A DNA stretch of 44,052 nucleotides from contig CAYVWS010000002.1 of assembly GCA_964455535.1 (NCBI GenBank), forward strand, positions 1 through 44,052, in the 5' to 3' direction. Below the pieces are notes generated by a model. It searched no databases. It was not told the origin of the DNA and saw only the letters and a list, made by a program, of their open reading frames with translations. Each line of letters begins with the position of its first letter. The stretch's first letter is position 1. Below are positions 27,971-44,052 of this stretch, piece by piece. Position numbers and translations under genes: made by a program. Origin of the DNA: an uncultured Ignavibacteriales bacterium. GTDB taxonomy: Bacteria > Zixibacteria > MSB-5A5 > GN15 > FEB-12.

Positions 27971-28037
27971 TCTTCCTCCGAATATCGTCATTCTTTCTCC
28001 ACTTCGTTGTACAAATCGCCGGGCCAAAGGATCCGCG

Positions 28038-29525
28038 TCACTGGGCCGCAGTGGAACGCGCCAGCGCCGCCTGCTCGACAGCCATCTCGAGCGAATCGGC
28101 CGTGCGTGTATTTCCTAATTTGTCGCGATAGACGTCGGCCGCCATGCTCGCCGCGCGCAATCCCTGAATGGTCTCCGGGAATTTCTGGAACACCTGGCTC
28201 AGCGTCGTCGCGGCCTCGCTCCACTGCTTTTTTTGGCGATGCAAGTCGGCCAGAAAATACAGGGCGAGCGCTTCGTCGCGGGTACCCGGCTTCTGAGCAA
28301 TGATTGTCTTATACGCTTTTTCGGCTCGCGAATACCATTGTTCGGCTTCGGCTTCGCGTCCTTCTTTTTCGGCCTTACCCGCCAGATACAGATAAGCCGC
28401 CAGGGCAGGTTCCGAACCGGGATAATGATCGATCAAGTATCGATATTCGGTCTCGGCGCGTCCCCAGTTGTTTTCGAGTTCAAAGGTGCGCGCTTTGGTG
28501 TATTGAGCATCGGGCGAGGCCTTGAAATACCCCGGCCAACGGCTCTCGATGCTGTTAAGAATCTCGCGTGCCTTGGCGTAATCTTTCTTGTTCAGATAGA
28601 CACCGGCTCGCTTTTCGTAGATCTGAGGTCTGGCCGCAGTATCGGGCCCGACCAGAATTCGATCGAGTTCATCATACAGCGCGATCGCATCGTCGTACCT
28701 CCCGAGCTTCTCGGCGTACAGATCGGCAATATGCAGCTTCGGAACCGGCGCTATCGCTCCGGTGGAATCCACCATCTGGTGCAGGGTCGCGGCCGCTTTG
28801 CTCCACTCTTGGGCATCCTCATAGAGCCGTCCGAGATTGCCAAGAGATGTCATCGACAGCTCGGTTGGTTGGCCGGAGGTAGCTGACCATTTCTGGTAGT
28901 AGGCCTCGGCTCGCGCATACCACTGGGCCGCGCTGGCCGAATCCTGACCGTCGACAAACGCCTGATGAATTCTCAGCGGCAAATTGAACACCAGCAGGAG
29001 GACATGTCCTGAGTCGTTTACCGGCGGCACGAATTTATCGATGGCTGTAGTGTAAACCGACAACGATGAGTCGCGCCGTCCGCCGACTTGCAAGGCACGG
29101 CCGAAATTGTACCAGGTGGTTGCTTGCTCGGTGCGGTTGAGCGTCGCCTTGTCGATCAGCCGTTCAATCAGAACGACTAAAGTGTCGTAGCGACGCGCCG
29201 CGAAATACATCTGCGCCAGTCGGGAAGTGCTCTGGTAGACGATGCCGGAGAGCTGACGGTTCTCCTGCTGGTCGAACGCGGGAGTAACCGTATCGAGTGC
29301 GGCAAACCCGTACGCGGCCACTGCGCTGAATTGATCGCGGAGATTTCGGGCTACGGCAGGATCATCGACGTCGCCGCGGAATTCGGCCGCGGTGAGCGCT
29401 TTATTCGCCGCATAGTACATCTTCTCCGCCTGGTATCGAATGCGAACGGCGGTTTTGTCCGAACAGCTCCAGCCCGCAAGGGCGATGGCGGCGGCCGCAC
29501 CAAGAATCAGTATTCTGTTTCTCAT
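28038..29525 (-). CDS. tetratricopeptide-repeat protein with signal peptide (possible lipoprotein)
   Basis: ORF trimmed to ATG 29525 (MRNRILILGAAAAIALAGWSC). 495 aa of TPR-like helical pairs with many W/Y..A...Y..A motifs. Confidence 0.75.
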   Translation of the reverse strand: MRNRILILGAAAAIALAGWSCSDKTAVRIRYQAEKMYYAANKALTAAEFRGDVDDPAVARNLRDQFSAVAAYGFAALDTVTPAFDQQENRQLSGIVYQSTSRLAQMYFAARRYDTLVVLIERLIDKATLNRTEQATTWYNFGRALQVGGRRDSSLSVYTTAIDKFVPPVNDSGHVLLLVFNLPLRIHQAFVDGQDSASAAQWYARAEAYYQKWSATSGQPTELSMTSLGNLGRLYEDAQEWSKAAATLHQMVDSTGAIAPVPKLHIADLYAEKLGRYDDAIALYDELDRILVGPDTAARPQIYEKRAGVYLNKKDYAKAREILNSIESRWPGYFKASPDAQYTKARTFELENNWGRAETEYRYLIDHYPGSEPALAAYLYLAGKAEKEGREAEAEQWYSRAEKAYKTIIAQKPGTRDEALALYFLADLHRQKKQWSEAATTLSQVFQKFPETIQGLRAASMAADVYRDKLGNTRTADSLEMAVEQAALARSTAAQ

Positions 29526-29630
29526 GAGTCCTTGTATCGACTTTATCTCGCGAATTATCAATGAGATGGGAGTATATATGGCGAGGCGACTCGGCACAAG
29601 TCAATTGTCGTGAAAGGGTTGCGTAGGGCA

Positions 29631-29689: not shown

Positions 29690-30508
29690 TTACTTGCGGC
29701 GGCGAATCACGCCCGCGCCCAACAGGCCGATGCCGAAGAGCAGCATCGAGGCCGGTTCCGGTACGCCGGTCTGGCAGCGGTACTTGGTGTCCATCCAGTC
29801 ATTGCCGCATCCCAGATTTACGTGGAAATTGAGTTCCTTGAAATCGCCGAAGCAGGATTTGTTGATTTTGAATTCCCACACGAAGGTGTCGCCATTTCCC
29901 GGACCGGTAAATCCGGTTTCCTTAAAGGAATTGTCGTAGGTCTTGGAGAATTCGATATTCGCCTTTTTGGAGGCGTTGCTGCCGATTTCATGGGCGCCGG
30001 CTGCGTTCTTGATGGTCGTGTTCTTGTAGTACGAGCCATTCACGTTCTGGATGTAGTTCCAGCTGTTATTCGTCCGGTAGAAGCCGGTGGAACCGGATTC
30101 GTTGGATTTCTGCTTGGTATAGTCGCTGATCGAAGACTTCACGTCGATTGCGTACTGGAACGGATTGCCGCCGTCGACACCGATGAAGATATCGCCTAAG
30201 CGAAAGTTCTGGTTGTAGCTCGTCGAGTGGGCCAGATATCCGAAGGAATTGGTCATCGCGACATACACATAGTTGCCTTTTTCGCGCACCTTGAATCCCT
30301 CGAGATCGAACTTCTCGCCGCCTTCGCCTTTAGTGCCCGGAGACGGGAGATGGCCGACGTTGTTCGGGTAGTTGAACGGAGCCCAGTTGTTGTTGTAATC
30401 AAAAGGGTTCTCGCTGTTGTTAAACACGGTGTTGTAGTGATAGCCATACGCGCCGGCTGTCGCCGCCGCGAACATCACTACAAGCGTTGTCAAAATCAGT
30501 TTTTTCAC
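29690..30508 (-). CDS. PEP-CTERM sorting-domain surface protein
   Basis: 272 aa. GTG 30508 with GAGAGG upstream. Signal peptide. C-terminus GVPEPASMLLFGIGLLGAGVIRRRK is a canonical PEP motif + TM helix + basic tail. Confidence 0.9.
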   Translation of the reverse strand: MKKLILTTLVVMFAAATAGAYGYHYNTVFNNSENPFDYNNNWAPFNYPNNVGHLPSPGTKGEGGEKFDLEGFKVREKGNYVYVAMTNSFGYLAHSTSYNQNFRLGDIFIGVDGGNPFQYAIDVKSSISDYTKQKSNESGSTGFYRTNNSWNYIQNVNGSYYKNTTIKNAAGAHEIGSNASKKANIEFSKTYDNSFKETGFTGPGNGDTFVWEFKINKSCFGDFKELNFHVNLGCGNDWMDTKYRCQTGVPEPASMLLFGIGLLGAGVIRRRK

Positions 30509-30832: not shown

Positions 30833-32092
30833 ATGTCGTCACATGATCTGGGAGCTGCTGGTTCAAATGAAGCAGAAAGAGAATTGAAGTTCGCTTCGTT
30901 TTCGGAAAACTCGAGAAATCAGAACGGAAAGCAGCTGCTTAACATGCTGCGATTGTCTCGCGGCGATCTGATGAGCGGCCGTCATCGCACTCAGCTCTAC
31001 AGATTCCTGACCAACAATGTGCCGGTCGTGCATTCCTGTATCTGGACCTGGGTAAAGTTGGCGTCGGCCCCGGGTGAGTATGTCGTAGAATCGTCATCCG
31101 GAACTCAGGTCGAGTCTCGGGCCGCCGACCGACTCGCGCGACTCTCGGACGGATTGTATTCCGGGACGACTAACCAGCGAGTGGGGCTCGCGTTTCTTCT
31201 TTCGGAGTTGTTCACGTCGCTTTTTCGCGACGGAATGTTTGTCGGATACCTGCGTGTCAAACCCGACCAAAGCGGGGTGGAGCAGCTTCTTCCGATCGAT
31301 GTCGCCAGTCTTCGTTTTGAGTCGGACTCGGGGCGCACCGGCTTGTATCTGGATCAGAATAATCAATTAGTATCGCTGAAGCGGCCCGATGTCTTCGTCA
31401 TTCCCTATAGCGGCTCGTCGGACGCGCCGTACGGTCGTTCACTTTTGCAGGCAGTTCCATTTGTCGCGTACATCGAGCAACAGTTGATTGACGATATGCG
31501 TCGCAGCAGCCACAATTCCGGATTCCAACGTTTCCATGTCAGAATAAGCCCGCCGGAACGAATGTCGGGAGAGTCCGATTCGGCCTACACCAATCGGGTA
31601 AACGCCTATTTCGATTCGACCGTCGAGATGTTCAGGAGTTGTGAAGTCGACGACAACCCGGTGACGTGGAACAATGTTGAGGTCAGTTCGATCGGCGCCG
31701 ACCGCCGGCGCGACACCTCCAGCAGCTGGTTTATGACACACCGCGCGATGGTGGAGGAAATCTGTGCCGCGACTAATCTGTCGCCGTTCTTGTTGGGATA
31801 TTCGTACGGCGCCACGACGACCTGGTCGGGATTCAAATTCGATGTTGTCATGCGACAGGTGCGTGCGGTTCAGGCGCAGGCCTCGCAATTTTTGGAATGG
31901 ATCGGCAATATCGAGCTGGCGCTGGCGGGTATCGACGCCCGTTGCCGTTATCGATTCGATAACTCATTTGCCTATCAAGTAAAAGACGACATTGCAGTGC
32001 AAACTGCCCGGATCGACAATCTCTTGAAATTATATCAGGCCGGATTGATAGACGCTGCCACCGCCAAAAAAGAGACGTGGCGAATACTCTGA
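30833..32092 (+). CDS. phage portal protein (putative)
   Basis: ORF 30689.. trimmed to ATG 30833 (AAAGGAG upstream). 419 aa. C-terminal block EEICAATNLSPFLLGYSYGATTTWSGFKFDVVMRQVRAVQAQASQFLEWI fits the portal clip/stem pattern. Its stop is overlapped by the TerL start. Confidence 0.6.
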   Translation: MSSHDLGAAGSNEAERELKFASFSENSRNQNGKQLLNMLRLSRGDLMSGRHRTQLYRFLTNNVPVVHSCIWTWVKLASAPGEYVVESSSGTQVESRAADRLARLSDGLYSGTTNQRVGLAFLLSELFTSLFRDGMFVGYLRVKPDQSGVEQLLPIDVASLRFESDSGRTGLYLDQNNQLVSLKRPDVFVIPYSGSSDAPYGRSLLQAVPFVAYIEQQLIDDMRRSSHNSGFQRFHVRISPPERMSGESDSAYTNRVNAYFDSTVEMFRSCEVDDNPVTWNNVEVSSIGADRRRDTSSSWFMTHRAMVEEICAATNLSPFLLGYSYGATTTWSGFKFDVVMRQVRAVQAQASQFLEWIGNIELALAGIDARCRYRFDNSFAYQVKDDIAVQTARIDNLLKLYQAGLIDAATAKKETWRIL

Positions 32093-33411
32093 TCGAAGCG
32101 GCGCCGGCAGAAGTCTGGCGGCGCGGCTTTTTTGACCCGGCAACGTTTGCGCGGGAGATTCTCGGTGTCGAATTGCATGCCGGCCAGATCGAATGGCTGG
32201 CCAATTCGTGGCGACGCGAGAATCTTTTGGTAACCGGCAATCGATGGGGAAAGTCGTTTGTCTCGGCGGTGAAGCTCGTGCACAACGCTGTCTATCAGAT
32301 TCGTGCGGCGCAGTGGCGCGATGTGCCGCACTATCGGGCGGTCACCGCTTCGATTACGCAGGATCAGGCCAACATTGTGTTCAACCAAGTAAACCGGCTG
32401 ATCCGGCGATCGCCGGTACTTGCGGAGCTGGTAGTCGAACGGGTGCGCACGCCGTTTCCGAAGATCACCTTCGGCAACGGCTCGACAATTGAGTCGCGCT
32501 CGACCCAGAACCGGGGTGAGTATCTGCTCGGAAACGACTTTGATTTCTTTGTTTTCGACGAAGTAGCGTTCGAAAGCGATCCGGAGTATGTCGTCGAAGA
32601 AGTTATTCTGATGCGGCTGGCCGACCGGGAAGGGCGGCTCGACTTAGTCTCGACACCCAATGGCAAGAACTGGTTCTACAAGCGGGCCGGTGAGATTTTG
32701 ACCGGCAAACGTCCCGGGTATTTTCAGTCGGGCGACAGCCGTCAGAATCAGTTTATCTCAAGCGTGTTCCTTAACGAGCGGGTCAGATATTTCTCTGATT
32801 CGCGGATGCGCCAGAATATTATGGGACAGTTTGTAGATGCCGGTGGCGAAATTCTCAAGGGCGCCGATATCGATCGCGCTCTGTCACACGCCGCTGCGCT
32901 AAGTTCCGATTCGCCCGTGTATATCTCGGGCTGGGACCTTGCTCGCAAACGTACCGCTACCGTGGGGATTACGGTCGATGTCAGCCGGCGGCCGGTTCGG
33001 ATCGTGGCGCTGGAGCGATTCACCAATTTCGACTGGGTGATTATCCTTGAAAAAATCAGAGCGCGTCAGCGCCAATTTCCGGGGCGTCTGGTGGTTGACG
33101 GTACCGGACTTGGCGATGTGATCGCCGAGCAGCTCGCCGACTACAAACCGCTGTCGGTGATATTCACGCCCACGACCAAATCGGAACTGCTCACAAATGT
33201 TGAGTTGTTTCATGCCCGGGGCGAAGTGTCGTATGACCGCTGGGAACTTCCCGACGGTCCGGGCAAATCGTGGTCGCTCGAAGACGAACTGCGCGCGGCC
33301 AGATGGGATGACAACAACCAATGCGATTCGCTCATGGCCCTGGCTTTGGCCCTTTGGCCGCTATATCGCAAGGAACGCGCGGTGGTGCTGCCGAGATTGG
33401 CAAGAGTCTGA
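32077..33411 (+). CDS. terminase large subunit
   Basis: GTG 32077, 16-nt overlap with portal. Walker A LLVTGNRWGKS. Walker B FDFFVFDEVAF. RNaseH-like nuclease acidic motifs ISGWDLARKRTATVGITVD, LVVDGTGLGD, RWDDNNQCDSLMALALA. Confidence 0.8.
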   Translation: MANTLIEAAPAEVWRRGFFDPATFAREILGVELHAGQIEWLANSWRRENLLVTGNRWGKSFVSAVKLVHNAVYQIRAAQWRDVPHYRAVTASITQDQANIVFNQVNRLIRRSPVLAELVVERVRTPFPKITFGNGSTIESRSTQNRGEYLLGNDFDFFVFDEVAFESDPEYVVEEVILMRLADREGRLDLVSTPNGKNWFYKRAGEILTGKRPGYFQSGDSRQNQFISSVFLNERVRYFSDSRMRQNIMGQFVDAGGEILKGADIDRALSHAAALSSDSPVYISGWDLARKRTATVGITVDVSRRPVRIVALERFTNFDWVIILEKIRARQRQFPGRLVVDGTGLGDVIAEQLADYKPLSVIFTPTTKSELLTNVELFHARGEVSYDRWELPDGPGKSWSLEDELRAARWDDNNQCDSLMALALALWPLYRKERAVVLPRLARV

Positions 33412-33456
33412 CTTTCCGCCTGCCAACGTTGTTCGAAATCGTTTCACCCTGCACAC

Positions 33457-33497
33457 AAAAAAATGCACCTCCTGAGGGAAGGGAACTCAGGAGGCAC
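33457..33497 (-). terminator. intrinsic terminator of the antisense PEP-CTERM mini-gene
   Basis: Minus-strand RNA GUGCCUCCUGAG-UUCCCUUCC-CUCAGGAGGUGC (9 Watson-Crick pairs, extendable with G.U) then A-UUUUUUU (plus-strand A-run 33457..33463). Confidence 0.7.
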
Positions 33498-33522
33498 TGA
33501 GGGGAGGAGGGTTGGGGGAATG

Positions 33523-33789
33523 CTATTTTTTGATTCGTCGATACGCGGCCGCTCCACCCAAGCCAACCGCCAACAACAGCAAAGTTGTCGGTTCAGGTAC
33601 GGCTGACGGGACATGCTGCGGCGGCGGATATGTCGAATTTTCGGCCGTGCAGTTCTTTTGCGAACCGTGCCCGCTGCCGACTTCGGTGCCATACACATCC
33701 GAAAGCGACCAGCACAGAACCGCAATGAACACAACCGCGGCGATCACCCACTTAAGGGGCTGCTCAGACTTCTGTTGATATACTCGCAT
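33523..33789 (-). CDS. small PEP-CTERM sorting-domain protein (antisense insert in the phage cassette)
   Basis: ORF 33523..33870 trimmed to ATG 33789 (ATG 33801 is an alternative). 88 aa. N-terminal hydrophobic signal/anchor WVIAAVVFIAVLCWSLSDVYG, short Gly/Ser/Pro-rich middle, C-terminal AVPEPTTLLLLAVGLGGAAAYRRIKK. Confidence 0.7.
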   Translation of the reverse strand: MRVYQQKSEQPLKWVIAAVVFIAVLCWSLSDVYGTEVGSGHGSQKNCTAENSTYPPPQHVPSAVPEPTTLLLLAVGLGGAAAYRRIKK

Positions 33790-34028
33790 TTTGATCACCA
33801 TCCTATCGAGGTCGGTTTTTTCTCTCTGATAAGGCATTGAGCAAAGGTTGTGCCCGCAATCGCTCTGCACATAAAAACTAGCAATGTCTTGAGCGACAAG
33901 CCGATTGATCGCCGGCGAGCGCGCATAGACTACAGCTCAGCGCTGTGGTATCACGCAAGAGTTTGCGCAAAATGACTACACGATCGATGGGCATCTGAAA
34001 TTTGCCGGTATGGGCAAATGGAGGAAAG

Positions 34029-35561
34029 ATGGCCCCACAATTTGGCAGACTGACGACTCAGCTCGCTGATTCGACGATAGCTCCCACCGACCGATTTTGC
34101 GATCTGATCAACCAGCGGATCGCACCAAAGTCGGCGGTCACGGCCGAGAGCATTTTTGTCGGCGCGATGTATTTAGTCTCCGATCAGGTTAACTCGTTCG
34201 GCGGGAGATTCCCTTTCGACGAACACCAGCGGCTGGCGGAACTGATCGTCGATTCGCCGGTGCTGGTGGGGCATCGCAAGGATTCTCTGCCGATAGCACG
34301 GAATTTTCACGCTGAGTTAGTCGAGCGCAACGGTGAGCGGTGGGTAAAGTGCTACTTCTATTGGCTGCGCGATTCGCAGGGGGCTGAATCGCTCAAGACG
34401 AATATTGAAGGCGGCCTCTATAAAGAGTGCTCGATTGCCTTCACTTACAATTTGCCCGAGTGTTCTATCTGTGGCGAGGACATCCGCGCCTGCGAACACG
34501 AACCGGGGATGGCGTATTCATCGGGCGAGGGCGAGTCGGTCTGTCATTTCAACTACCGTCAGATCGAGCGCGTGCTGGAGGCCTCGCTTGTCTATCGCGG
34601 GGCGGTGCCGAATACGCTTGTAACCACCGACGACCGCATTTCGGACGCGGCCTCTTCGCTCAATGCCGCTGATTGCCGCAATTCGTCCGGGCCAATCCTG
34701 CAACGCATCGACTCCCTCGAACCACTCGATCGCGACTCTCGATACCTGGTTGTCCCGAAATACGACGCCCTGCCGGTTATCCTCTCGGCAACTCAAAATC
34801 TAATCTCGCTTTCGAAGTTTGACGAGTCTCCGGTTTGTCTGGACATGCCGCCATCTTGTCTGGCCGATCGATCGCCGGATCGAAAGGCCGGTTTACTGAT
34901 TGGGCTTCAGGGGCGTCGACGATGCAGTCGGAGCGAAATCGAAAACTATCTCAAGGATAAATCGGCTCCGGTTTCCAGAGTGGTGGTCGCCCTCTATCCG
35001 GACACGGGCAGCTATTCCCGACCTGCAAAGTTCTCGCATGGACGGGACATGGTACGGATTCTGCCGCACCGTCTGGCCGCGTGGCCCGATCTTCAATCGG
35101 CGATTAGAGCTGTCGCCACCCGCGATGGCGTCGAGATTTGGCCGTTTAATTCCAATCCGCTGACCGACCGGGGTTTCCACTATGTGAATACATCCCGAGT
35201 CAGACCCGAATTGGCTCTCCCGTCGACTTTCACCTATGACAACGCCACACGATCAGGAAATCTGACTCTCTCGCATGAGCAGTCACAACTCCGACTGACG
35301 GTACCCAAATTCGATCCTTCGACTTGCGCTGCCGGACGGCGGTACCTTGTCGATCCCGTAATCGACAACCGCACCCAGACCGCGCTCATCAAGTTGATTT
35401 CCGCCGGCCGTAGCATCAATTGTGAAGTCACATCACTTGATTCGGAAAAGGGACAACTGACTGTAGTGTTGCGTCGCGTCCTGCTCAACGGCCGACGACG
35501 ATTTCTCATCGGTGCACTACCCGTATCGTCACACCGGAGGGATTGTCATGCGTCAAACTGA
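34029..35561 (+). CDS. prohead serine protease (HK97/S78-like) fused to a ~300-aa uncharacterised C-terminal region
   Basis: ORF trimmed to ATG 34029 (GGAGGA upstream). PVLVGHRKDSLPIAR (catalytic-His context) and, 51 residues later, GGLYKECSIAF (Ser context) match the S78 H...S spacing. Followed by the Cys/His knuckle CSICGEDIRACEH. Residues ~210-510 are unassigned. Confidence 0.6.
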   Translation: MAPQFGRLTTQLADSTIAPTDRFCDLINQRIAPKSAVTAESIFVGAMYLVSDQVNSFGGRFPFDEHQRLAELIVDSPVLVGHRKDSLPIARNFHAELVERNGERWVKCYFYWLRDSQGAESLKTNIEGGLYKECSIAFTYNLPECSICGEDIRACEHEPGMAYSSGEGESVCHFNYRQIERVLEASLVYRGAVPNTLVTTDDRISDAASSLNAADCRNSSGPILQRIDSLEPLDRDSRYLVVPKYDALPVILSATQNLISLSKFDESPVCLDMPPSCLADRSPDRKAGLLIGLQGRRRCSRSEIENYLKDKSAPVSRVVVALYPDTGSYSRPAKFSHGRDMVRILPHRLAAWPDLQSAIRAVATRDGVEIWPFNSNPLTDRGFHYVNTSRVRPELALPSTFTYDNATRSGNLTLSHEQSQLRLTVPKFDPSTCAAGRRYLVDPVIDNRTQTALIKLISAGRSINCEVTSLDSEKGQLTVVLRRVLLNGRRRFLIGALPVSSHRRDCHASN

Positions 35562-35859
35562 CCGCAATCGCCCGCTGCGAATATCGGGGCAGGTCTGGAA
35601 TGTACTCACCATCGCCTTCGGCATGATCGCGGCCTATTTCATGACGATACAGCAGATCAAAGTCGAACTGGCGGCCAAGGCTGAGTCAACCGTAGTCGAA
35701 ACACTCGACAAGAAACTCACCAGCGTGGAAGTCTATCTCAAGGAAGCAGTGGTCAGCAAACAACAGTTCTATGAACACTCGCAGAAGATGGAATCACGAC
35801 TGGATCGCATCGAACACTATCTCGTGGAACAAACAGGAGAGACACGTGGAAAAAGATAA
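35548..35859 (+). CDS. small membrane-anchored coiled-coil protein (hypothetical)
   Basis: ORF trimmed to ATG 35548 (GGAGGG upstream; 14-nt overlap with the protease stop). 103 aa. One TM helix VWNVLTIAFGMIAAYFMTI, then a heptad-like helix. Confidence 0.6.
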   Translation: MRQTDRNRPLRISGQVWNVLTIAFGMIAAYFMTIQQIKVELAAKAESTVVETLDKKLTSVEVYLKEAVVSKQQFYEHSQKMESRLDRIEHYLVEQTGETRGKR

Positions 35860-36259
35860 TTCGGATCTGGGGTATATCGACGACGTCTGCACGGCGCTGA
35901 GCGCCGAATCGATTGAGGAAATCGACTTTGACCGTCTGCGCCGCTGGCTTTCGGAGCTGGGGGCGGTGCTTCCCACATTATATGCCGCGCGGGAAGAAGC
36001 CCGGCTGTTGCGCGAAGATCTGAATATCCGCATTAGCGGCATGCTAAAGGCGATTGTGATCGCCGACCGCGGCAAATCGATCTCCGAGGATTCGCTTGAA
36101 ATTCTGAACCACCTCCCCGACAAGAGCGCGGCGGAGCTGATCGGGCTCTATCGCCGCACCCAGGCCCGTTTCCGTGACACGTTTCCGTCCGGGCCCGGAT
36201 TGATCACGCCTCGTCGCGCTCCTTTTCAAAATGCACGAATCGGAAACAAACGGGTGTGA
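35846..36259 (+). CDS. scaffolding-like helical protein (hypothetical)
   Basis: ORF 35771.. trimmed to GTG 35846 (AGGAGAG upstream; 14-nt overlap). 137 aa, acidic helical N-terminus and basic C-terminus. The position between protease and capsid genes suggests a scaffold. Confidence 0.5.
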   Translation: MEKDNSDLGYIDDVCTALSAESIEEIDFDRLRRWLSELGAVLPTLYAAREEARLLREDLNIRISGMLKAIVIADRGKSISEDSLEILNHLPDKSAAELIGLYRRTQARFRDTFPSGPGLITPRRAPFQNARIGNKRV

Positions 36260-36343
36260 CAGTGTGGGGCATCGCCTCCGACCCAGCGGGACAGTTGTCC
36301 CGGTCGGTCCACCCAACAATAGAAAAACAATAGGAGAACACAG

Positions 36344-36766
36344 ATGTCAGTACGCGATCAGAATCTTGAATCGATAGCGCCGGTGTTGGCCAGTTTCAAG
36401 ATTCATCAAACCGCCGGAGCCGACGATCTCAAAGATCAGCATATCGGCCAACCGGTGCAGCTCACCGGCAATCACGAAATCGGTCCTATCACTGCCGGCG
36501 GTCAGCTGTTGGGCAAGCTCATCAGTCTCACCCTGACCGACGCCGACACCGGCAAGCGATGGGCGACGGTGCAGGTCGGCGGTATCTGCGAATTCAATAT
36601 CTCCGCCACCAACCCGACGGTCGGCAACAGAGTCGTCGGCGGGACGACGGGAACGGTCAAGCAGGCGCCCGCGCTTGCCGGAAATGATCCGGCCGGCGGA
36701 AATGTCGGCCGCGGCACAGTGCTTGCGGTCAACGGCACCACCGATTGCACAATTCTCTTGAACTAA
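36344..36766 (+). CDS. head decoration / DUF2190-like protein
   Basis: 140 aa. AGGAGAA RBS. Gly-rich beta pattern (GQPVQLTG...GKLISLTLTDADTGKRWATVQVGGICEF...GNRVVGG...GRGTVLAVNG) resembles DUF2190 decoration proteins. Lies immediately upstream of the capsid gene. Confidence 0.5.
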   Translation: MSVRDQNLESIAPVLASFKIHQTAGADDLKDQHIGQPVQLTGNHEIGPITAGGQLLGKLISLTLTDADTGKRWATVQVGGICEFNISATNPTVGNRVVGGTTGTVKQAPALAGNDPAGGNVGRGTVLAVNGTTDCTILLN

Positions 36767-36780
36767 AAGAAGGGGCTCAT

Positions 36781-37884
36781 ATGGAATTTCAACAGTTTTT
36801 GCAGTCGAAGGGGATTAGTCAATTGGCATCGGAGATCGATCGCGAGGCAAGCGTCAGCCGCGTTGATCTGTCCGTCGCCGCCTCTTTCGATGTCACTCGC
36901 GATCTTTACACCGAGGCCGAGGCCCGCGGCTTGTCGCTGTCAGAACTTCTGGAATCGGACGACTTCGATCCGACACCGTCGGGAAGTCCGCTTGACGCTT
37001 TCGAGCGGCAGCTGGCGCTGGCCGGAATTCGCTTCGGCGGACGCACGCCTACTACAGTCGAGCAGTTCTACCAGAAGGCGCCGACCCTTCTGCCGGAGTT
37101 CATGCTCCGCGAAATCCGCCGCGGACAGGCGATGCGTCCGGAACTAGCGCGCTTGATTGCCAACTCGACGACCGCTTCCACCAATCGGTACACGCCGTTT
37201 TACATCGACACCACCGATGCGTCGAAGTTTTCCCTGCGCCCGGTCGGTGAGGGAGCCGAAACGCCGCAGCTGGTTGTGACCGAGCAAACGCATGCCGTGC
37301 CGGTGAAGGACTACGGTCTTGCGCTCAAAGCGAGTTACAAAGCGCTTCGCTACCGCACGACTTCGCAGTTCCGTGTGCTGCTGTGGTACATCGGCTTCAA
37401 GATGCAGACTGACAAGATCGGCATGATCGTCGATGTCATCATCAACGGAGACGGCAACTCCAATCCGGCGTCGGTGACCAACGTGGCCTCGAGCGGCACG
37501 CTGGCCTACGCCGATCTGATCAACCTCTGGTCGACCTTCGCGCCGTATGAGATGAACACCATCGTCTGTCACATCAATACCCTCAAGACGATTCTCACGA
37601 TGAACGAATTCAAAGATCCGCTGGCCGGGTATCGGTTCCAGCAGTCGGGTGAATTGTTCAGTCCGTTGGGAGCGTCGCTGGTCCGATGCGACGATGTCCC
37701 GACCGATTTTGTGATCGGTCTGGACAACCGGTTCGCCGTCGAAGAGGTCGTGACTCAGCCGCTGATGGTCGAGTACGACAAGATCATCGAACAGCGACTG
37801 GAAGAAGCGGTGATCACCGAATCGGTCACCTACGCCAAAGTGCTCAAAGGGGCTTCAGCTATTCTCGACACGGTATTTCCGTAA
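36781..37884 (+). CDS. major capsid protein (HK97 fold)
   Basis: ORF trimmed to ATG 36781 (AAGAAGGGG upstream). 367 aa. Position, size and the block VKDYGLALKASYKALRYRTTSQFRVLLWYIG...INGDGN are typical of HK97-type capsid proteins. Confidence 0.7.
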   Translation: MEFQQFLQSKGISQLASEIDREASVSRVDLSVAASFDVTRDLYTEAEARGLSLSELLESDDFDPTPSGSPLDAFERQLALAGIRFGGRTPTTVEQFYQKAPTLLPEFMLREIRRGQAMRPELARLIANSTTASTNRYTPFYIDTTDASKFSLRPVGEGAETPQLVVTEQTHAVPVKDYGLALKASYKALRYRTTSQFRVLLWYIGFKMQTDKIGMIVDVIINGDGNSNPASVTNVASSGTLAYADLINLWSTFAPYEMNTIVCHINTLKTILTMNEFKDPLAGYRFQQSGELFSPLGASLVRCDDVPTDFVIGLDNRFAVEEVVTQPLMVEYDKIIEQRLEEAVITESVTYAKVLKGASAILDTVFP

Positions 37885-37888
37885 GACC

Positions 37889-37923
37889 GCCGGGGAGTCC
37901 GGCAGTCGCGCCGGACTCCCGGC
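37889..37923 (+). terminator. strong hairpin (terminator/attenuator) immediately after the capsid gene
   Basis: GCCGGGGAGTCCGGC-agtcgc-GCCGGACTCCCGGC: 14 pairs with one bulged G, followed by TACTTTGTG (weak U-tract). Confidence 0.5.
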
Positions 37924-37942
37924 TACTTTGTGAAGGAACAAC

Positions 37943-39355
37943 ATGCTCACCAAACTCACAGATACGTCCGCCGCCACGTCGCTTGGGCTGGCCGCCGGTC
38001 ACAAACTGATGTCGGTCGCGTCGGGCAATTGGAAAAACCGCCGCATTGCGCTGTTCATGAGTGCGCCGAATACGATTTCACTTAGTTGGTCGGACTCGCC
38101 GTATGTCGGCTGGAAGCCGCCGGTTGCTGTGGTGACCGACGCCGCCGACGAGGTTTTTGACGCGATCGTCGACGCCAACGGTAATCTGGTGATTGCCTAC
38201 ACCGACCAGGCAACTGCCCATTTGATCACGCGCCGGCTTACGATCGGCGCCAGCGGATGGACGGTCGGGTCGAAAGTCACCGTGTATGACTCGGCATTGG
38301 GATATGTGCCGAATTTGGCGCTGACTTCCGATGGGACCTACTGGCTGGCATGGCGACAAACGATTGTGCCGTCAAGCTGGATTTATGTCAAATCGTCGGT
38401 TGACGGTGGCCTGACATGGGGAAGCGGATCTTCCGACAACGGCACGCAGGTAAGTTCGGCCGCTACATTCGTCTGGCCTCGCCTGCTTGCCGACAATAGC
38501 ACGCTCTACTTGTTTATCGCCTACGGCAACGACCGCCTCGTCGTACGGTCGCGCGGAATTTCCGGCGGCGCCTGGTCGGCCGAATCGGCCGTGATCGCGA
38601 GCGCGAGTGTCGGAAGCGAATTCGATGTTGCCCTGACCGACTCCGGCGGCCTTGCGCTGCTGATTTGCGATGCATTGCCCCGGTATCGAGAGTTCGACGG
38701 GTTCACCTGGGGGGCAGTCACAACTCTTGATACGCGCCCCGCGATATCCCCGCAGCTGCTATTCCGGCAGGGGAATCCGGTCGCTGTCTTCTTAGGTGGT
38801 CTTGGTCCGCATCAGTTCGCGTTGCTGCAATCGGCTCGTGTCGGAGGGGCGTTCACGCCGACCAACTTTGTAGATCGACGTTCCAAAACGTTTGATTCCG
38901 TTCAGCTCTTCCACGCGGCTTCGCTGTCGTATCACGATGTGACAGCGGTGGCGGCCGACAGTAATTCCGGCGACGTTTTTCATCCCGTGTCGGGAGCAAC
39001 TCTGGCAAGTGTCGGCGATCGAATGTATGTCGGCCTTTCAGATCCGTTTCGATTTCTTACAGTCCTGCAGTTGACCGTCGGCGCGGGAGGGACGGTGAGC
39101 TATTCGTACTGGGACGGTTCGGGCTGGAAATCGTTCACGCCGATTTCTGGGGGATCCAATCTTGGCAATACAACCAACCAGTTGGCGCTTTGGTCGGATT
39201 ACAGCGCAGTTCCGATCGACTGGCAGAAGACAACGATCAACGGACAGTATCTGTTCTGGCTCAAAGTCGAATGCACTGCGGCCTATTCCAGCGCTCCGAA
39301 CGCCTACCAAGTGACGGCGCTATCTGAACTTAAACAAGTCAGCGTCCGGAGATAA
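37943..39355 (+). CDS. BNR/Asp-box (sialidase-like beta-propeller) protein, hypothetical
   Basis: 470 aa. One clear Asp-box SSVDGGLTWG (S-x-D-x-G-x-T-W) plus degenerate ones (TSDGTYWLAW). Repetitive beta-strand organisation. Confidence 0.6.
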   Translation: MLTKLTDTSAATSLGLAAGHKLMSVASGNWKNRRIALFMSAPNTISLSWSDSPYVGWKPPVAVVTDAADEVFDAIVDANGNLVIAYTDQATAHLITRRLTIGASGWTVGSKVTVYDSALGYVPNLALTSDGTYWLAWRQTIVPSSWIYVKSSVDGGLTWGSGSSDNGTQVSSAATFVWPRLLADNSTLYLFIAYGNDRLVVRSRGISGGAWSAESAVIASASVGSEFDVALTDSGGLALLICDALPRYREFDGFTWGAVTTLDTRPAISPQLLFRQGNPVAVFLGGLGPHQFALLQSARVGGAFTPTNFVDRRSKTFDSVQLFHAASLSYHDVTAVAADSNSGDVFHPVSGATLASVGDRMYVGLSDPFRFLTVLQLTVGAGGTVSYSYWDGSGWKSFTPISGGSNLGNTTNQLALWSDYSAVPIDWQKTTINGQYLFWLKVECTAAYSSAPNAYQVTALSELKQVSVRR

Positions 39356-39357
39356 CC

Positions 39358-40167
39358 ATGTCATATACGTCCGTAGAACAAGTGAGCAGCCATCTGGCGG
39401 CCAAATCGATTCCTGCAGCGGCCCAGTTCGATGCACCCGTAGAGATCGATACAAACGAGAGTATCCAATTCTCGTCAGTCGGTGTCGAACCGGGCTCGGT
39501 GGTGGTAAAGGCGCTACGGTCCCGAGAACATTCGCGGGTCACGCTGTCCTTGACCAACCCACTCGACTTTTCATCGGCGCCGGTTGTCCCCAATTCTGTC
39601 ATAGTCGCATCGGACTCTTCATTGGGTCAGATATTTGTCGAGCCGGTGGACTATCTCATCGATCCGAAAGAAGGGCGGCTGGCAGTCCGCGCCGGCGGCG
39701 CGCTTGAAGTCGGGAGCGCTGTCACGATCTGGTACCGACCGTACTCGGTGCTGCAGGAATCATCCGACTACCACCTTGATTCGGATCATGCAACTATTCG
39801 CCGCGCCCTTTCCGGCGATATCGCGCTTGGAGAAACGGTGTATGTCGACTTCACACCCCGAGTCGCGACTATTCTCGAAGAGATGATTCAATCTGCTGTC
39901 TCTGCCGCGAACGGACTGATCGAGCGGATGGTCGATCCCGACGGTCAGTTCGAGGCCGATCCGGTCCTGGGACTGGCCGCGACATACACGGCATTGGAAA
40001 TTGTTTGTCGTTCGGCCGCGGCTCGCGAACTCACCTTTCGCACCGGCGAAGACCGCCCTGCAAAGACGTGGATGCAGCTCGCCGGCGAATATGCATCGCG
40101 CGCGGAAACGCTGATCACCGGCTTCCGGCCGCCCGTCACACCACTTTCACGCCCAACTATTTCATAG
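39358..40167 (+). CDS. hypothetical protein (possible head-tail adaptor; helical C-terminal half)
   Basis: 269 aa. GGAG RBS, 2 nt after the upstream stop. The role is guessed from position only. Confidence 0.55.
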   Translation: MSYTSVEQVSSHLAAKSIPAAAQFDAPVEIDTNESIQFSSVGVEPGSVVVKALRSREHSRVTLSLTNPLDFSSAPVVPNSVIVASDSSLGQIFVEPVDYLIDPKEGRLAVRAGGALEVGSAVTIWYRPYSVLQESSDYHLDSDHATIRRALSGDIALGETVYVDFTPRVATILEEMIQSAVSAANGLIERMVDPDGQFEADPVLGLAATYTALEIVCRSAAARELTFRTGEDRPAKTWMQLAGEYASRAETLITGFRPPVTPLSRPTIS

Positions 40168-40177
40168 GAGAACAACG

Positions 40178-40546
40178 ATGTCGTCACGTTCAGAAATTCT
40201 TGCCCGGCGCGTCTGGATGGTTCCGGAATTCGCCGTCTGGGGATCAGCCGGTTATGGCGAAACCGACTTGCTGATCGTTGAACAAATCGGCTCGACTTCC
40301 GCGGTCTTCTTCGGAGCTGTTGACATCGGAGGCAACGAACAGGAAGTACTCTTTGAGGCGTTGGTAGATCACCGCGGGAACAAACTCCCCGATCAGATCG
40401 CTTCGCCGTGCGTCATGCCCAAACCCAAAGGACCAACTGCGCCGTTCATTGTCGGCCGGGAATCGAGTGTTGGATTTCGTATCGCTCAGTCCGGCTCGAC
40501 CACACCGGTCATCGCCGACCTACTGGTGGTGGAACTTGGCAACTGA
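40178..40546 (+). CDS. hypothetical protein
   Basis: 122 aa. AGGAGAA RBS. Beta-rich. No family recognised. Confidence 0.55.
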   Translation: MSSRSEILARRVWMVPEFAVWGSAGYGETDLLIVEQIGSTSAVFFGAVDIGGNEQEVLFEALVDHRGNKLPDQIASPCVMPKPKGPTAPFIVGRESSVGFRIAQSGSTTPVIADLLVVELGN

Positions 40547-40829
40547 GACCGACAGCAAACTCGTGATTACCACTCCGGCCTTCGGCGTTGACTTGCTTGA
40601 TGACCTCATCGAGGAGTGGTACTTGATTCTCAAAGATAAGTCTGAAGAAGCGAAGATAGGAGATTGGCTGAAAATGATTGAAACACGAAAAAAACTCAGT
40701 CCGGAAGGACGGGAGAAAGAGGAACTATGGGATCTGCTCAAGAAGATTCGCAACGCCTCGATTGACCGTCACACGATTCAAAGTCAGGCGACCGACGTAC
40801 CACCTGATTCCGAGGAGGCGGCAGCGTGA
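40536..40829 (+). CDS. hypothetical acidic helical protein
   Basis: ORF 40449..40829 trimmed to TTG 40536 (GGTGGTGGA upstream; 11-nt overlap with the previous stop). The start is uncertain. Its stop overlaps the next gene's GTG (GTGA). Confidence 0.4.
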   Translation: MATETDSKLVITTPAFGVDLLDDLIEEWYLILKDKSEEAKIGDWLKMIETRKKLSPEGREKEELWDLLKKIRNASIDRHTIQSQATDVPPDSEEAAA

Positions 40830-41521
40830 GATCGTTATCAATCCGGCTGCTTTGCCTGACCGTTGTCAGCTTGTTTGTCTTTCCGCCGCACGCCTCGGCA
40901 ATTGAACTGCGCGTGAAGTGCGGAACAGTCACGGCTGATTCGTGCAACGACTGGTATTACACCGCCGGACTCAACGGCGCTCCCCATGTGCCGGCCGGGA
41001 ATGCCTCCGATTACAATCTGGGTTACACTGGCGCTTTTCAGCGTCGATACGCCGTAGTGTTTCCCGGTCTGTCGATTCCGCAGAATGCGACAATCGATTC
41101 GGGATTTCTCAAGGCCTCCTGGGTGACGACAGATTCGACCATCAAACCGGTAGTTTTGCTCTACGGTGTTGCCAGCGATGCCATCGACACGATTGTCGAC
41201 TCGACCCGATGGGTGAGCGCGTACGCAGCCCGGACAACCGCGGTCGACTCGATGTACGACTCCCTGTGGGCTCGCACGACTACAGTTTTCGCCTGGGCCA
41301 AAACTTTCAAAGTAAAGTCGATCCTTCAGGAACTGGTCAGCGCCGCCTGGTGGCAAAGCGGTGATACCGCCGTATTCGTCTCTCTGCCGAACACCGGCAC
41401 CACAGGTGACCGAGCGTTCAAACAACTCAATTCAAATGGCGGCGATTCTCTGATCGTCTACTACACTCCGCCCGCCGCCGGCGGCTCGGGCAACGGACCT
41501 CGGGTTCTATTGAGGAAGTAA
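40826..41521 (+). CDS. secreted protein (signal peptide), possibly DNRLRE-type accessory domain
   Basis: GTG 40826 with GAGGAGG 7 nt upstream. MRSLSIRLLCLTVVSLFVFPPHASA signal peptide. 231 aa. The pattern RRYAVVFPGLSIPQNATIDSGFLKA...VLLYGV...W...SILQELVSAAWWQSGD...SLIVYY resembles DNRLRE-like domains (low-confidence recollection). Confidence 0.6.
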   Translation: MRSLSIRLLCLTVVSLFVFPPHASAIELRVKCGTVTADSCNDWYYTAGLNGAPHVPAGNASDYNLGYTGAFQRRYAVVFPGLSIPQNATIDSGFLKASWVTTDSTIKPVVLLYGVASDAIDTIVDSTRWVSAYAARTTAVDSMYDSLWARTTTVFAWAKTFKVKSILQELVSAAWWQSGDTAVFVSLPNTGTTGDRAFKQLNSNGGDSLIVYYTPPAAGGSGNGPRVLLRK

Positions 41522-41525: not shown

Positions 41526-44052
41526 ATGCGCATGTTCATCACCATATTATTTGCAGCGCTTGTGCATTGCGCATCAACTCTGGCCACCACAAGATTTACA
41601 TCATCCAACACGACCTGGTCGGCGCTGGCGCCAATTTCAACAGACACGGTCTACATCCGAGCCGCTCACACGATCACGGTCGATGTGAACAATGTCACGC
41701 GCTCATGCGCCGCACTCGTCGACAGCGGCACGGTATCATGGCAGTCGGGCAAACGACTCAATATCGGCGCGGTTCTTCTTGTCGGCACCATGACGATGAT
41801 TTCCGGCGACACCTTGAATGTGTACAACGAAGACCTCCTCGGTGCCGACGATTTGAGCATCATCAATGCCGGCCGACTCACCGGGGTTGGCACAACTGCA
41901 TTCCCCGTGCTGATACGAGGGAATACATCGAATGGCACCTTGCCTTCGGTCGTTGTCTCCGGCGCGTCGGCTCGCTGTTATCTTCGTCGTTTCGATTGTC
42001 GCGGTTTTCAGGGGAGCTGGCCGAGCGCGGGAGTGACATTCAACAGCACCGACGCCGCCAATATCAGTATGCGCCACGGCCGCTTCGATTCGGCTTCGGT
42101 TTCATTTCGATTGACCGGCGGCCACTGTCTGGTCGGCTGCCGCATGACCACCTACGGCGGCATGAATCGCGCCATCACGCTTCAGTCCAGCCTCGGCGAT
42201 TCGATCATCGGATGCCGCATCGTACACAACGCGGTCGGCAGCGGAAACTTCGCCGGCGCGCAGGGAATATACGTCTGGTCGGACAACACCTACATCTACG
42301 GCTGCAATATCAAAGACTCGAACTTCACGGGAGCGTGGGGGGGAGATTATGGCATCGCGCTGGAGCAGAATGTCGGCGGCACGCGCATCATCGCCGACAC
42401 CGTCTCGGGTTTTGAGTTCACCATTGCAACACCCGGCGGTAATCACCCCAATGTCCGCATACAGTATTGCAAAGTTCAGTCGGGCGCCCATGAATCGATC
42501 ATTCTCCACAACGGCGACACCGGCTGGAAACTTTACTGTAACACAATCACCAGTTTCTCCTCGGGCGGCCGCTCCAGTGTCACCGTGTACTGCAATCAGA
42601 CCGGAGCTGCCGACGGGCTTGAGTTGCTGTACAACACGATTGTTTCCAACTACGGCGGCGCACCGGCTTCATCGGCGGTCGCGTTCGAGAACACGAGTGT
42701 AGGCAGTATTGCCTACAACAATATCAAGATGGTCGGCAATCTGCTGATCGGCGAAAACGCCGGTTTCAATCGCGCCGAAATCGTTCTGGGTACGACCGCG
42801 TCCCAAAGCGCGACCGTCAATTTTTCAGAATTCAAAGACAACGCCTTTGATTCGGTCTACTATTTCGGATCATCCGGCGCGACGTATCCGTACAACCGTC
42901 TCGACTCGAACTTGCACAATGCAACCGCATTTGTGTTCGTCGACTCGGTCGGCGGCGATTTTCGCTTGGGCGTCGGATCGCCGATGAAAAACGCCGGCGA
43001 CTCGGTTTACGGTTGTCTGGTTTACGGCGATTTCCGCGCCGCCACCCGGCCGTTTAATGTCGGCTCTGACCAAAACTTCCCGAACCGCTGGCGATATGCG
43101 AAATACTCGACCACCGGCCTGACCGATTCGGCCTGGATTCGCGTCGCTTGTCTTGCCTACTCCGGCTCCGATTCAACCGCTTTTGATTTTCTCGGCCGAA
43201 AATACGACCTCTGTATCAACGGTGATCGGTACATCGCGTCCGCACGCGCCCGGGATTCGATGGTCAAGAATATTATCTACACTACCCTGACTTCTTACCG
43301 AGCCGTCGACTACAACGACAAACTGATTTCGTTCCGTGATCGGTACTATCCGTCGCTTGCACTTGATTCATTCGCGCTGAAACTCAATTCCGATCCGGGA
43401 AGTGTACTCATACAGGGCCAGCAATCGACGTGCGCCTCAGTGTTGACCTCGGTCAGTTCCGGCGAGACAATCAAATTCTGTGGTTGGACCGAATCGGCGC
43501 GCTGGTGCCCCGACTTCCGACTCCCCATCGCCCAACGATACGTGCGCTACAAATCGCTGGCAGAAATAGCGGACATTAGCGACGGCATCATGCAGGATGA
43601 GGCCTCGATGTACAAAGCCGCGTACTGCTGCGGCAATCCGCAGGAAGAGTACGGCATGCTCTGGCCGTTTCAGTCGTCGTCATGGTCGCCCTCGGGTTCA
43701 TTTGCCAGAACGCGCGGCTGGGAAGGCAAGAGCTACAACCAAATTCGCGACAGTTTGATAACGCTGAAGCGAAAAGTGTGGGGCAAAGCGCTCGAGGACT
43801 CGCTGCGGCTGTACAATTTCTTGGGCTTCGGCAACTTCACAAACTATGCCTTGCCGCTCACCAGCGACGGTGACATGAGCGATCCGTACGGCGATGCCCG
43901 CGACTTCGGCGCGGGGCACCTCACGTTTGAAAATTCTCTGGCTCCGTTTGTTTACGGTCAAACCTGGAACAACTGGGCCTGGACCGCGATGGATTCGATA
44001 GCCGTCTGGGATACGGCTCAGATGATCGTTTGGACCACGATCGTTCCTTCGG
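41526..44052 (+). CDS. secreted right-handed parallel beta-helix repeat protein, 5' part (>=842 codons, runs off window end)
   Basis: Not in the ORF track. I translated frame 41526 by hand to 44052 and found no stop. GAGGA 9 nt upstream, 4 nt after the previous stop. Signal peptide MRMFITILFAALVHCASTLA. PbH1-like turns (GCRIVHNAVGSGNFAGAQGIYVWSDNTYIYGCNIKDSN, GIALEQNVGGTRIIADTVSG, ILHNGDTGWKLYCNTITS, AFENTSVGSIAYNNIKMVGNLLIGEN). Confidence 0.8.
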   Translation, partial: MRMFITILFAALVHCASTLATTRFTSSNTTWSALAPISTDTVYIRAAHTITVDVNNVTRSCAALVDSGTVSWQSGKRLNIGAVLLVGTMTMISGDTLNVYNEDLLGADDLSIINAGRLTGVGTTAFPVLIRGNTSNGTLPSVVVSGASARCYLRRFDCRGFQGSWPSAGVTFNSTDAANISMRHGRFDSASVSFRLTGGHCLVGCRMTTYGGMNRAITLQSSLGDSIIGCRIVHNAVGSGNFAGAQGIYVWSDNTYIYGCNIKDSNFTGAWGGDYGIALEQNVGGTRIIADTVSGFEFTIATPGGNHPNVRIQYCKVQSGAHESIILHNGDTGWKLYCNTITSFSSGGRSSVTVYCNQTGAADGLELLYNTIVSNYGGAPASSAVAFENTSVGSIAYNNIKMVGNLLIGENAGFNRAEIVLGTTASQSATVNFSEFKDNAFDSVYYFGSSGATYPYNRLDSNLHNATAFVFVDSVGGDFRLGVGSPMKNAGDSVYGCLVYGDFRAATRPFNVGSDQNFPNRWRYAKYSTTGLTDSAWIRVACLAYSGSDSTAFDFLGRKYDLCINGDRYIASARARDSMVKNIIYTTLTSYRAVDYNDKLISFRDRYYPSLALDSFALKLNSDPGSVLIQGQQSTCASVLTSVSSGETIKFCGWTESARWCPDFRLPIAQRYVRYKSLAEIADISDGIMQDEASMYKAAYCCGNPQEEYGMLWPFQSSSWSPSGSFARTRGWEGKSYNQIRDSLITLKRKVWGKALEDSLRLYNFLGFGNFTNYALPLTSDGDMSDPYGDARDFGAGHLTFENSLAPFVYGQTWNNWAWTAMDSIAVWDTAQMIVWTTIVPS

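Follow-up and report, generated by a model that had tools for sequence, protein, structure and literature searches.

Gene transfer agents (GTAs) of the Rhodobacter capsulatus type (RcGTA) and other viriforms derive from phage structural gene clusters fixed in the chromosome of their host; their particles package random host DNA, cannot pass on the full set of their own genes, and use a tail or another device for delivery to recipients. The RcGTA capsid protein is of the HK97-type Phage_capsid family. Capsid-forming phage-inducible chromosomal islands (cf-PICIs) are mobile, patchily distributed elements that carry an integrase, regulators, replication genes and a small terminase. Encapsulins have no portal, terminase, protease or decoration genes and package protein cargo that peptide tags direct to the shell. 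The present work deals with a cassette of phage head and DNA packaging genes found in a stretch of 44,052 nucleotides (the window, analysed at its full length) from contig CAYVWS010000002.1, which is deposited as an uncultured Ignavibacteriales bacterium and classified by GTDB within the Zixibacteria. We read this cassette, with moderate confidence, as an ancient and vertically inherited viriform, phage-derived and GTA-like, that supplies head and packaging functions and is either head-only or stub-tailed. An open reading frame (ORF) scan of the window showed that the ORFs from 30833 onward are densely packed on one strand, with a single antisense gene among the following features of the cassette:

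30833-32092, plus strand: portal protein (phrog_3753, E 3e-19).
32077-33411, plus strand: large terminase subunit TerL, with ATPase and nuclease (phrog_2, E 4e-28; Pfam Terminase_6N above cutoff); it overlaps the portal stop codon.
33523-33870, minus strand: PEP2, a small antisense PEP-CTERM protein whose translation ends in the PEP-CTERM motif; found at this position in 39 loci.
34029-35561, plus strand: protease fusion (phrog_16951, E 5e-20; phrog_80, head maturation protease, E 0.017), within an ORF open from 34002 (519 residues).
35548-35859, plus strand: tmcc, about 103 residues, N-terminal hydrophobic helix and coiled coil (phrog_12220, E 8e-6; 72 loci, median identity 53%).
35771-36259, plus strand: scaffold-like protein, named from its position only (71 loci, median identity 37%; start uncertain, 122-145 residues in relatives).
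36344-36766, plus strand: decoration-like virion structural protein, 140 residues (phrog_4588, E 1.6e-8; median identity 70%).
36781-37884, plus strand: major capsid protein (MCP), HK97-type (phrog_3922, E 1e-63; Pfam Phage_capsid_4).
37889-37923, plus strand: GC-rich hairpin directly 3' of the MCP stop codon (minimum free energy, MFE, in the window -32.4 kcal/mol).
37943-39355, plus strand: g9, 470 residues, modelled as a beta-propeller with a C-terminal beta-sandwich (AlphaFold2, AF2, pLDDT 87.7); no signal peptide.
39358-40167, plus strand: g10, 269 residues, modelled as an N-terminal helix, Ig-like beta domains and a C-terminal three-helix bundle (AF2 pLDDT 86.7).
40178-40546, plus strand: g11, 122 residues (58 loci, median identity 45%; about 124 residues in relatives).
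40563-40829, plus strand: g12, about 88 residues (88 as called in the near-identical public contig L001; 41 loci; about 97 residues in relatives).

The cassette is fixed in Zixibacteria chromosomes, has neither mobility nor long-tail genes, is intact and co-diverges with its host. Homologues of the MCP number 995 at E <= 1e-10. The best 120 of these are 69-90% identical and almost all about 367 residues long; the named sources of the best homologues are mostly metagenome-assembled genomes of Zixibacteria (or GN15), and some of the contigs are 0.2-1 Mb long. When each GTDB species was represented by one genome, 192 MCP loci were obtained, nearly all from Zixibacteria; in the best 80 of these 192, some of them on complete chromosomes, the MCP is 67-82% identical. 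JGI metagenomes, scanned with TerL as anchor, added 212 further loci. The same gene order recurs across dozens of species. Its upstream half runs from a PD-(D/E)XK nuclease through u208 (a 208-residue protein) and a TPR-repeat protein, both on the minus strand, and in some loci a minus-strand PEP-CTERM protein, to portal, TerL and the small minus-strand PEP-CTERM protein. Then comes the head operon (protease fusion, tmcc, scaffold-like protein, decoration protein, MCP, g9, g10, g11 and g12), and the 3' end consists of two to four signal-peptide proteins, a 100-residue membrane protein (T100), a DUF7451 protein on the minus strand and an HD response regulator. Counted over those species-representative loci whose flanks are long enough, TerL precedes the MCP gene in 37 of 42, a DUF7451 or response-regulator (RR-HD) flank is found downstream in 35 of 38, and u208 or the TPR protein upstream in 25 of 38.

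Since the window ends inside a signal-peptide gene that starts at 41526, the absence of a tail had to be judged from complete loci in relatives. Such loci on contigs of 1.0 Mb and 236 kb are abutted by host genes on both sides, span about 13-17 kb of head genes and unknown genes only, and end about 6 kb after the MCP gene. Pfam detected in them no integrase, repressor, replication, sheath, tube, tape-measure, baseplate or endolysin family. In the window itself neither Pfam nor PHROG gave an integrase, repressor or replication gene, no tRNA is present, and the base composition of the cassette is that of the host region, with no compositional break. The absence of integrase, repressor and replication genes claimed in the initial annotation thus holds for the window as well as for complete loci, and its description of the cassette as tail-less holds for long tails only. 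A long tail is excluded and a short stub formed by g9-g12 is compatible with the data.

Unless a contig end truncates them, core ORFs keep their full length in virtually all loci. Across species, the median identity with the window copy is 70% for the MCP, 70% for the decoration protein, 64% for TerL and 55% for the portal, higher than that of the neighbouring TPR, PD-(D/E)XK and u208 proteins (34-48%). Ratios of non-synonymous to synonymous divergence (dN/dS) relative to the three closest relatives are 0.05-0.26 for MCP, decoration protein, tmcc, g9 and g10 and reach up to 0.49 in the remaining core genes, rough values as dS is saturated. Pairwise identities of cassette genes follow those of the flanking host genes: the Mantel r is 0.82 for TerL, 0.82 for g10, 0.81 for the portal, 0.73 for the MCP, 0.70 for g11 and 0.64 for g9. 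The decoration gene has a lower value (0.40-0.45); p is <= 0.0005 throughout. A fixed locus, intact ORFs, constraint and co-divergence with the host together indicate domestication and lead us to exclude an ordinary prophage and a mobile satellite. The initial annotation had proposed a preset test in which fixed position and purifying selection were weighed against patchy presence, and the outcome clearly favoured its domestication reading. Its satellite reading is not supported, given the missing integrase and replication genes and a presence that is not patchy, and its prophage with tail genes beyond the window is refuted by the complete loci, which run into host genes about 6 kb after the MCP gene.

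Two units make up the cassette. One is portal-TerL; the other is the head operon, which extends from the protease fusion by way of MCP and g9-g12 to the exported proteins and T100. Each unit is kept intact in rearranged genomes. Five loci (L018, L036, L052, L088, L095) have the head operon without portal-TerL upstream, and three (L125, L130, L183) have portal-TerL at its usual place without the head operon. In L125 (11350-12579) an apparent inversion lies beside the PD-(D/E)XK gene, with a breakpoint between TerL and the small PEP-CTERM gene. In the lineage nearest the window two response-regulator genes are inserted between TerL and the small PEP-CTERM gene.

Several observations extend the distribution. 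IMG/VR holds one cassette-type contig (L188) among 2.9 million, with the same gene order and from a deeper clade. This clade (L182, L183, L188, L175, L177) has the same cassette, with TerL 47-54% and MCP 60-66% identical, and in L182 an insertion of about 6 kb separates TerL from the protease gene. Cassette contigs are also deposited under other names (Thermoplasmata archaeon, Acidoferrum, Deferrimicrobium, Calditrichota and Flavobacteriaceae; L034, L042, L047, L050, L077, L091), and about 19 loci are labelled Ignavibacteriales. For the Ignavibacteriales, the label set tested, these loci interleave with Zixibacteria-labelled ones for host gene and MCP alike, and a second phylum carrying the cassette, which we had considered for these genomes, was rejected on this ground. 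The non-Zixibacteria labels are probably binning or naming artefacts, so that the cassette could serve as a marker of Zixibacteria.

The assignments of portal, TerL and MCP made in the initial annotation, as well as its remark that the portal gene precedes TerL, were borne out by Pfam and PHROG profile searches, and the ORFs are intact and co-oriented. The Walker A (TGNRWGKS) and Walker B (DE) motifs of TerL, its STP motif and its nuclease motifs (GWDLARK, DGTGLGD), of which the Walker and acidic nuclease motifs had been noticed before, are invariant across 39 species. No capsid family other than PF25209 (Phage_capsid_4) and phrog_3922 was found for the MCP at E <= 0.1. The antisense PEP-CTERM gene between TerL and the protease, and tmcc between protease and scaffold-like protein, had been pointed out as oddities; both are real and conserved across species. 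PEP2 is transcribed towards TerL and away from the head operon, and precomputed Pfam annotation gives PEP_exosort_dom in its relatives. With the protein at 29690-30508, PEP2 (33523-33870) makes two PEP-CTERM proteins tied to the cassette, which hints at a link with exosortase-dependent surface biology.

The protease fusion probably starts at the ATG at 34029 rather than at 34002. Its PHROG matches cover the N-terminal ~200 residues (the domain lies at about residues 40-200) and leave the C-terminal ~300 residues unexplained. Invariant in the protease domain of 17 orthologues (alignment A6) are the motifs PVLVGHRKD, with a His, ECSIGF, with a Ser, and CxxC..CxH; the invariant GHR and ECSIGF motifs resemble the catalytic His and Ser motifs of HK97-family prohead proteases. 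The phrog_80 match is weak both here (E 0.017) and in phage L017 (E 5e-4), there is no Pfam match, and a profile search against PDB sequences found no relative. By phrog_16951, the weak phrog_80 match and the invariant His and Ser motifs, the protein is a putative S78-like prohead protease, as assigned earlier. The C-terminal ~300 residues are themselves conserved (motifs GYRGKERCS and TRDGVEIWP in A6), and in L018 the protease domain and the C-terminal domain are encoded as two separate genes. A gene beside the portal in the phage-like contig L187 is 39% identical to the fusion. The scaffold proposed at 35771-36259 gained no support from profiles, as neither Pfam nor PHROG matched it. For the protein upstream of the MCP, a virion structural role stood (phrog_4588) and its proposed DUF2190 membership was not recovered by Pfam. 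The phrog_4588 family also precedes the MCP gene in phage L017.

The hairpin that follows the MCP gene has a median MFE of -24.5 in 81 loci (L022-L103) compared to -13.4 for random control windows of the same loci. Its position is conserved and the sequence of its stem varies among species. Probably it acts as an attenuator or stabilises the mRNA, consistent with the high ratio of capsid to minor proteins expected of a working capsid operon. A scan for sigma-70 promoters and terminators gave nothing above chance.

The genes downstream of the hairpin bear on whether the particle has a short tail. The initial annotation had counted three to four small connector-sized proteins here; they turned out to be proteins of 470 (beta-propeller), 269 (Ig-like domains and helical bundle), 122 and about 88 residues. 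One reading, the best placed of the alternatives and still rather unlikely in our estimate, takes the cassette for a complete podovirus-like GTA in which g10 is the adaptor, g9 a small nozzle, and g11 and g12 with the variable downstream proteins form a short tail with fibres. Its first support is that the top Foldseek match of g9 in the PDB is the 817-residue chain M, presumably the nozzle, of the podophage LME-1 (E 6.5e-11), a T7-like Legionella phage (PMC12407071). The TM-score of this match is only 0.39, however, and sialidases, lectin and generic propellers score nearly as high; a BFVD fold search returned only generic propellers. The g9 family has one invariant Asp-box-like stretch. g9 may be a lectin-like protein of the capsid or vertex, or a nozzle-like protein.

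The same reading draws on g10, whose bundle is adaptor-like and whose fold has weak matches to neck or tail chains of T4, Chi and T7; in the AF2 model the three-helix bundle has an extended C-terminus. The phage Ig-like domain family phrog_807 is matched by 49 of 55 g10 family members. A g10 profile searched against 1.84 billion representatives detected a more distant clade in phage-like contigs. In L186 (1564-14267) the g10 homologue comes right after tail-fibre and tail-spike genes and before TerL (32% identical) and portal (26%), in L187 it lies beside a portal 32% and a protease 39% identical to those of the cassette, and in L185 it carries fused Ig repeats and a BNR propeller gene comes after it; the neighbourhoods in L186 and L185 speak for the podovirus-like reading. 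These three contigs are closer to the cassette in portal, TerL and protease than the gut phages found through the MCP, and no capsid homologue was detected in them. A profile search of g10 against PDB sequences found nothing, and hhalign detected no similarity between the g10 and g11 profiles and proteins from the neck region of phage L017. We conclude that g10 is a virion protein inherited from a virus, plausibly an adaptor or spike-docking protein. For g11 a profile search gave no PDB match, and scanning of all family members gave no PHROG match; it is a possible head-completion protein. g12 matched no Pfam or PHROG family, and its sequence looks helical to us.

Downstream of g12 the cassette runs into genes for exported proteins, as first noticed in the window:

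40826-41521, plus strand: g13, with a Sec-type signal peptide, lineage-variable; no Pfam or PHROG match, few relatives only.
41526-44052, plus strand: g14, a lineage-specific signal-peptide protein, incomplete because the window ends within it; 1011 residues in L001, homologue only in L022.

In L001, the complete g14 gene is followed by two more signal-peptide genes. Pfam, PHROG and PDB searches gave no match for g14; our first impression of a right-handed beta-helix had no tool support and was dropped. In nearly every locus two Sec-type signal-peptide proteins are encoded between g12 and T100, and in the window lineage four. Their genes are on the same strand as the head genes and tightly packed, some with 4-nt overlaps, which makes co-transcription likely. 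The last exported protein (family B, 44 proteins) has a conserved C-terminal part of about 250 residues with CarboxypepD_reg-like domains and ends in W, and its N-terminal and middle parts are variable (e.g., L020 15370-16587, L022 14992-17430, L023 15267-17081). Tail fibres usually show the opposite pattern. Pfam and PHROG gave only weak hints of CBM96, Disaggregatase and CarboxypepD_reg in the variable exported proteins, and a sequence search with an 812-residue one found nothing. T100 begins with a hydrophobic helix, and its C-terminus is helical and conserved; that it may be a holin is only a guess from a Pfam Phage_holin_2_1 match at E 0.07.

For a podovirus-like GTA these exported proteins cut both ways. 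The downstream genes are lineage-variable, as receptor-binding proteins are. But the variable proteins all carry Sec-type signal peptides, which would take them away from assembly in the cytoplasm, they have no PHROG tail matches, and family B is conserved at the C-terminus whereas typical fibres are conserved at the N-terminus.

The GTA-like viriform that we favour would work in the following way. A host signal would lead to expression of the operon, and the hairpin after the MCP gene would keep capsid and decoration proteins in excess. Protease, scaffold and MCP would assemble an HK97-type prohead on the portal, into which TerL would package DNA, probably that of the host, in a manner not specific for sequence and without a recognisable small terminase. 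That no small terminase was recognised supports packaging of random host DNA indirectly. The adaptor-like g10 together with g11 and g12 would close the portal, and the g9 beta-propeller would supply a carbohydrate-binding surface or a stub. The co-transcribed, Sec-exported and lineage-variable proteins might act outside the cytoplasm on envelope or matrix, and T100 may aid release. A functional analogue of such co-produced exported proteins, offered as precedent and not as evidence, is the detachable matrix-degrading spike TspA that is co-produced with RcGTA (bioRxiv 10.64898/2026.07.19.739414). A more specific form of this reading, tentative and on balance doubtful, is a head-only viriform of another kind than tailed GTAs, satellites and encapsulins. 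Its capsid would package DNA, lack a tail for injection, and work with variable exported proteins of envelope or matrix and a PEP-CTERM partner from the same locus, for DNA export, exchange, storage or tail capture.

Some points weigh against a GTA-like viriform. The cassette is known from its genes alone, and whatever is said beyond its conservation and integrity is interpretation. The constraint itself is expressed in rough dN/dS values owing to the saturation of dS. Neither a small terminase nor an endolysin nor a delivery device was recognised in the window or in complete loci. The absence of a tail applies to the locus, and by analogy with dispersed GTA genomes, which place tail genes elsewhere, tail genes might lie at another site. 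We know of no precedent for signal peptides on core operon members of virions assembled in the cytoplasm. Finally, the complete chromosome L097 (CP070766.1) retains only the last 56 codons of TerL (6296-6463) beside an intact head operon, with no portal within 10 kb of it; in some lineages packaging may be dispensable, or encoded elsewhere.

A fixed but phage-dependent capsid island is improbable. On this account tail-less, adaptor-capped heads capture the tails of helper phages, to act as vehicles of transduction or else as decoys that tie tails up. The head-only gene set, the adaptor-like connectors and the lack of tail genes agree with it, and tail-less capsids of cf-PICIs with connectors can hijack foreign tails. 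It meets with the lack of an integrase, primase or replicase, regulator and small terminase, with a fixed position and deep co-divergence with the host that are the opposite of a patchy satellite, and with the absence of any match to a PADLOC defence family. Nor do we know of a matching tailed phage of Zixibacteria.

We give still less credit to a capsid kept for a use other than transfer, e.g., as a compartment for protein or DNA storage, with portal and TerL retained for assembly or in the course of being lost. The TerL remnant of L097 beside its intact head operon, the MCP and decoration protein as the most conserved genes, and the membrane and exported proteins embedded in the operon are what such a capsid would lead one to expect. 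However, the ATPase and nuclease motifs of TerL are invariant in the 39 species, TerL and the head genes are neighbours in 37 of 42 loci, rearranged genomes still hold portal-TerL intact, and no cargo-like gene is evident. Hardly credible is an ordinary or defective Zixibacteria prophage at a preferred integration site, to which the wholly viral type of the core genes and the cassette-only contig L188 in IMG/VR can be ascribed but not the absence of integrase, att, repressor, replication and lysis genes, the host genes abutting both ends, the recurrence of one site in species with flanking proteins just 34-48% identical, the constrained and intact ORFs that co-diverge with host genes, or the occurrence of the cassette in 1 of 2.9 million IMG/VR contigs.

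Upstream of 30500 Pfam identified ordinary cellular genes in the window (FG-GAP, OPT transporter, VKOR-DsbA, PhoD, OmpA, NDH-2, glycosyltransferase, PD-(D/E)XK nuclease, TPR and PEP-CTERM). Those that adjoin the cassette are:

26040-27326, plus strand: PD-(D/E)XK nuclease of Cas4-like fold (Pfam PDDEXK_1, E 1.7e-29), upstream in many loci.
27401-28027, minus strand: u208, 208 residues, adjoining the portal side; no Pfam or PHROG match (29 loci, median identity 48%).
28038-29597, minus strand: TPR-repeat protein (Pfam TPR families), a conserved neighbour, syntenic in 29 loci.
29690-30508, minus strand: PEP1, a PEP-CTERM protein (Pfam PEP-CTERM, E 3e-7; 14 loci), upstream of the portal in a subset of species.

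The nuclease is a conserved upstream neighbour and at most a candidate member of the cassette. PADLOC gave only generic Cas4-like matches for it, and no defence family apart from this fold. The N-terminus of u208 looks signal-peptide-like on our reading of the sequence. Farther upstream, a 908-residue ORF (13767-16493, minus strand) with only faint copper-binding and dockerin signals coincides with a local peak in GC (0.63 versus ~0.55 elsewhere) and may have been acquired recently, and a 621-residue fusion (16972-18837, plus strand) joins VKOR to two DsbA/thioredoxin-like domains.

If particles are made, the cassette is an independent case of phage-head domestication, found in an uncultured phylum of the Fibrobacteres-Chlorobi-Bacteroidetes (FCB) group, as old as the sampled divergence of Zixibacteria and kept in most species sampled. 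It would then extend GTA-like biology beyond the few known lineages and challenge the view that a domesticated particle needs a tail. The compact set of 13-17 kb suits heterologous expression. The cassette is also a marker for the interpretation of 'viral' signals in sediment and groundwater metagenomes, and a warning against taking the capsid and terminase genes of Zixibacteria bins, which belong to the host, for prophages. The exported and PEP-CTERM proteins embedded in it point to an unexplored link between capsid and cell envelope.

A literature search limited to one library found no paper that ties Zixibacteria to capsids, terminases, prophages or GTAs, and the cassette is most likely an undescribed domesticated particle system of viral origin rather than a prophage. 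With GTAs of the RcGTA type and other viriforms it shares a phage-derived structural cluster fixed in the chromosome without genes for integration, replication or lysogeny, as well as vertical inheritance, purifying selection and ameliorated composition; the matrix-active accessory proteins co-produced with GTAs have TspA as their precedent. It differs from them in having no sheath, tube, tape-measure, baseplate or recognisable small terminase, in the signal-peptide and membrane proteins that are core to its operon, and in its host, the FCB-group Zixibacteria; it is moreover known from genes, with packaging of host DNA presumed. Homology of head genes to RcGTA, on which membership of the Rhodogtaviriformidae would turn, was not found, the cassette MCP belonging to PF25209/phrog_3922.

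Among phages, the closest are L017, a gut myophage, and the environmental L186 and L187, with homologous portal, TerL, protease, phrog_4588 protein, MCP and g10 family (26-39% identity). L017 has the same head module of protease, phrog_4588 protein and MCP, which continues into the Neck1, sheath and tape-measure genes of a contractile tail that the cassette is without, and L186 has tail-fibre and tail-spike genes and many small genes downstream. In L017 and L186 TerL precedes the portal, the reverse of the cassette order, no PEP-CTERM or u208-type genes are present, and the exported proteins of the cassette find short marginal matches at most. From a temperate Caudoviricetes prophage the cassette differs by the lack of tail, lysis, integration and immunity genes. 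cf-PICIs have the same kind of head-only set (TerL, portal, protease, MCP and connectors, no tail genes), but the cassette is without their integrase, regulatory and replication module and small terminase, and occupies one fixed locus at which it co-diverges with its host. Like an encapsulin, it encodes an HK97-fold shell protein in a cellular chromosome and is inherited vertically; it differs from an encapsulin in that it retains a portal and a TerL with conserved catalytic motifs.

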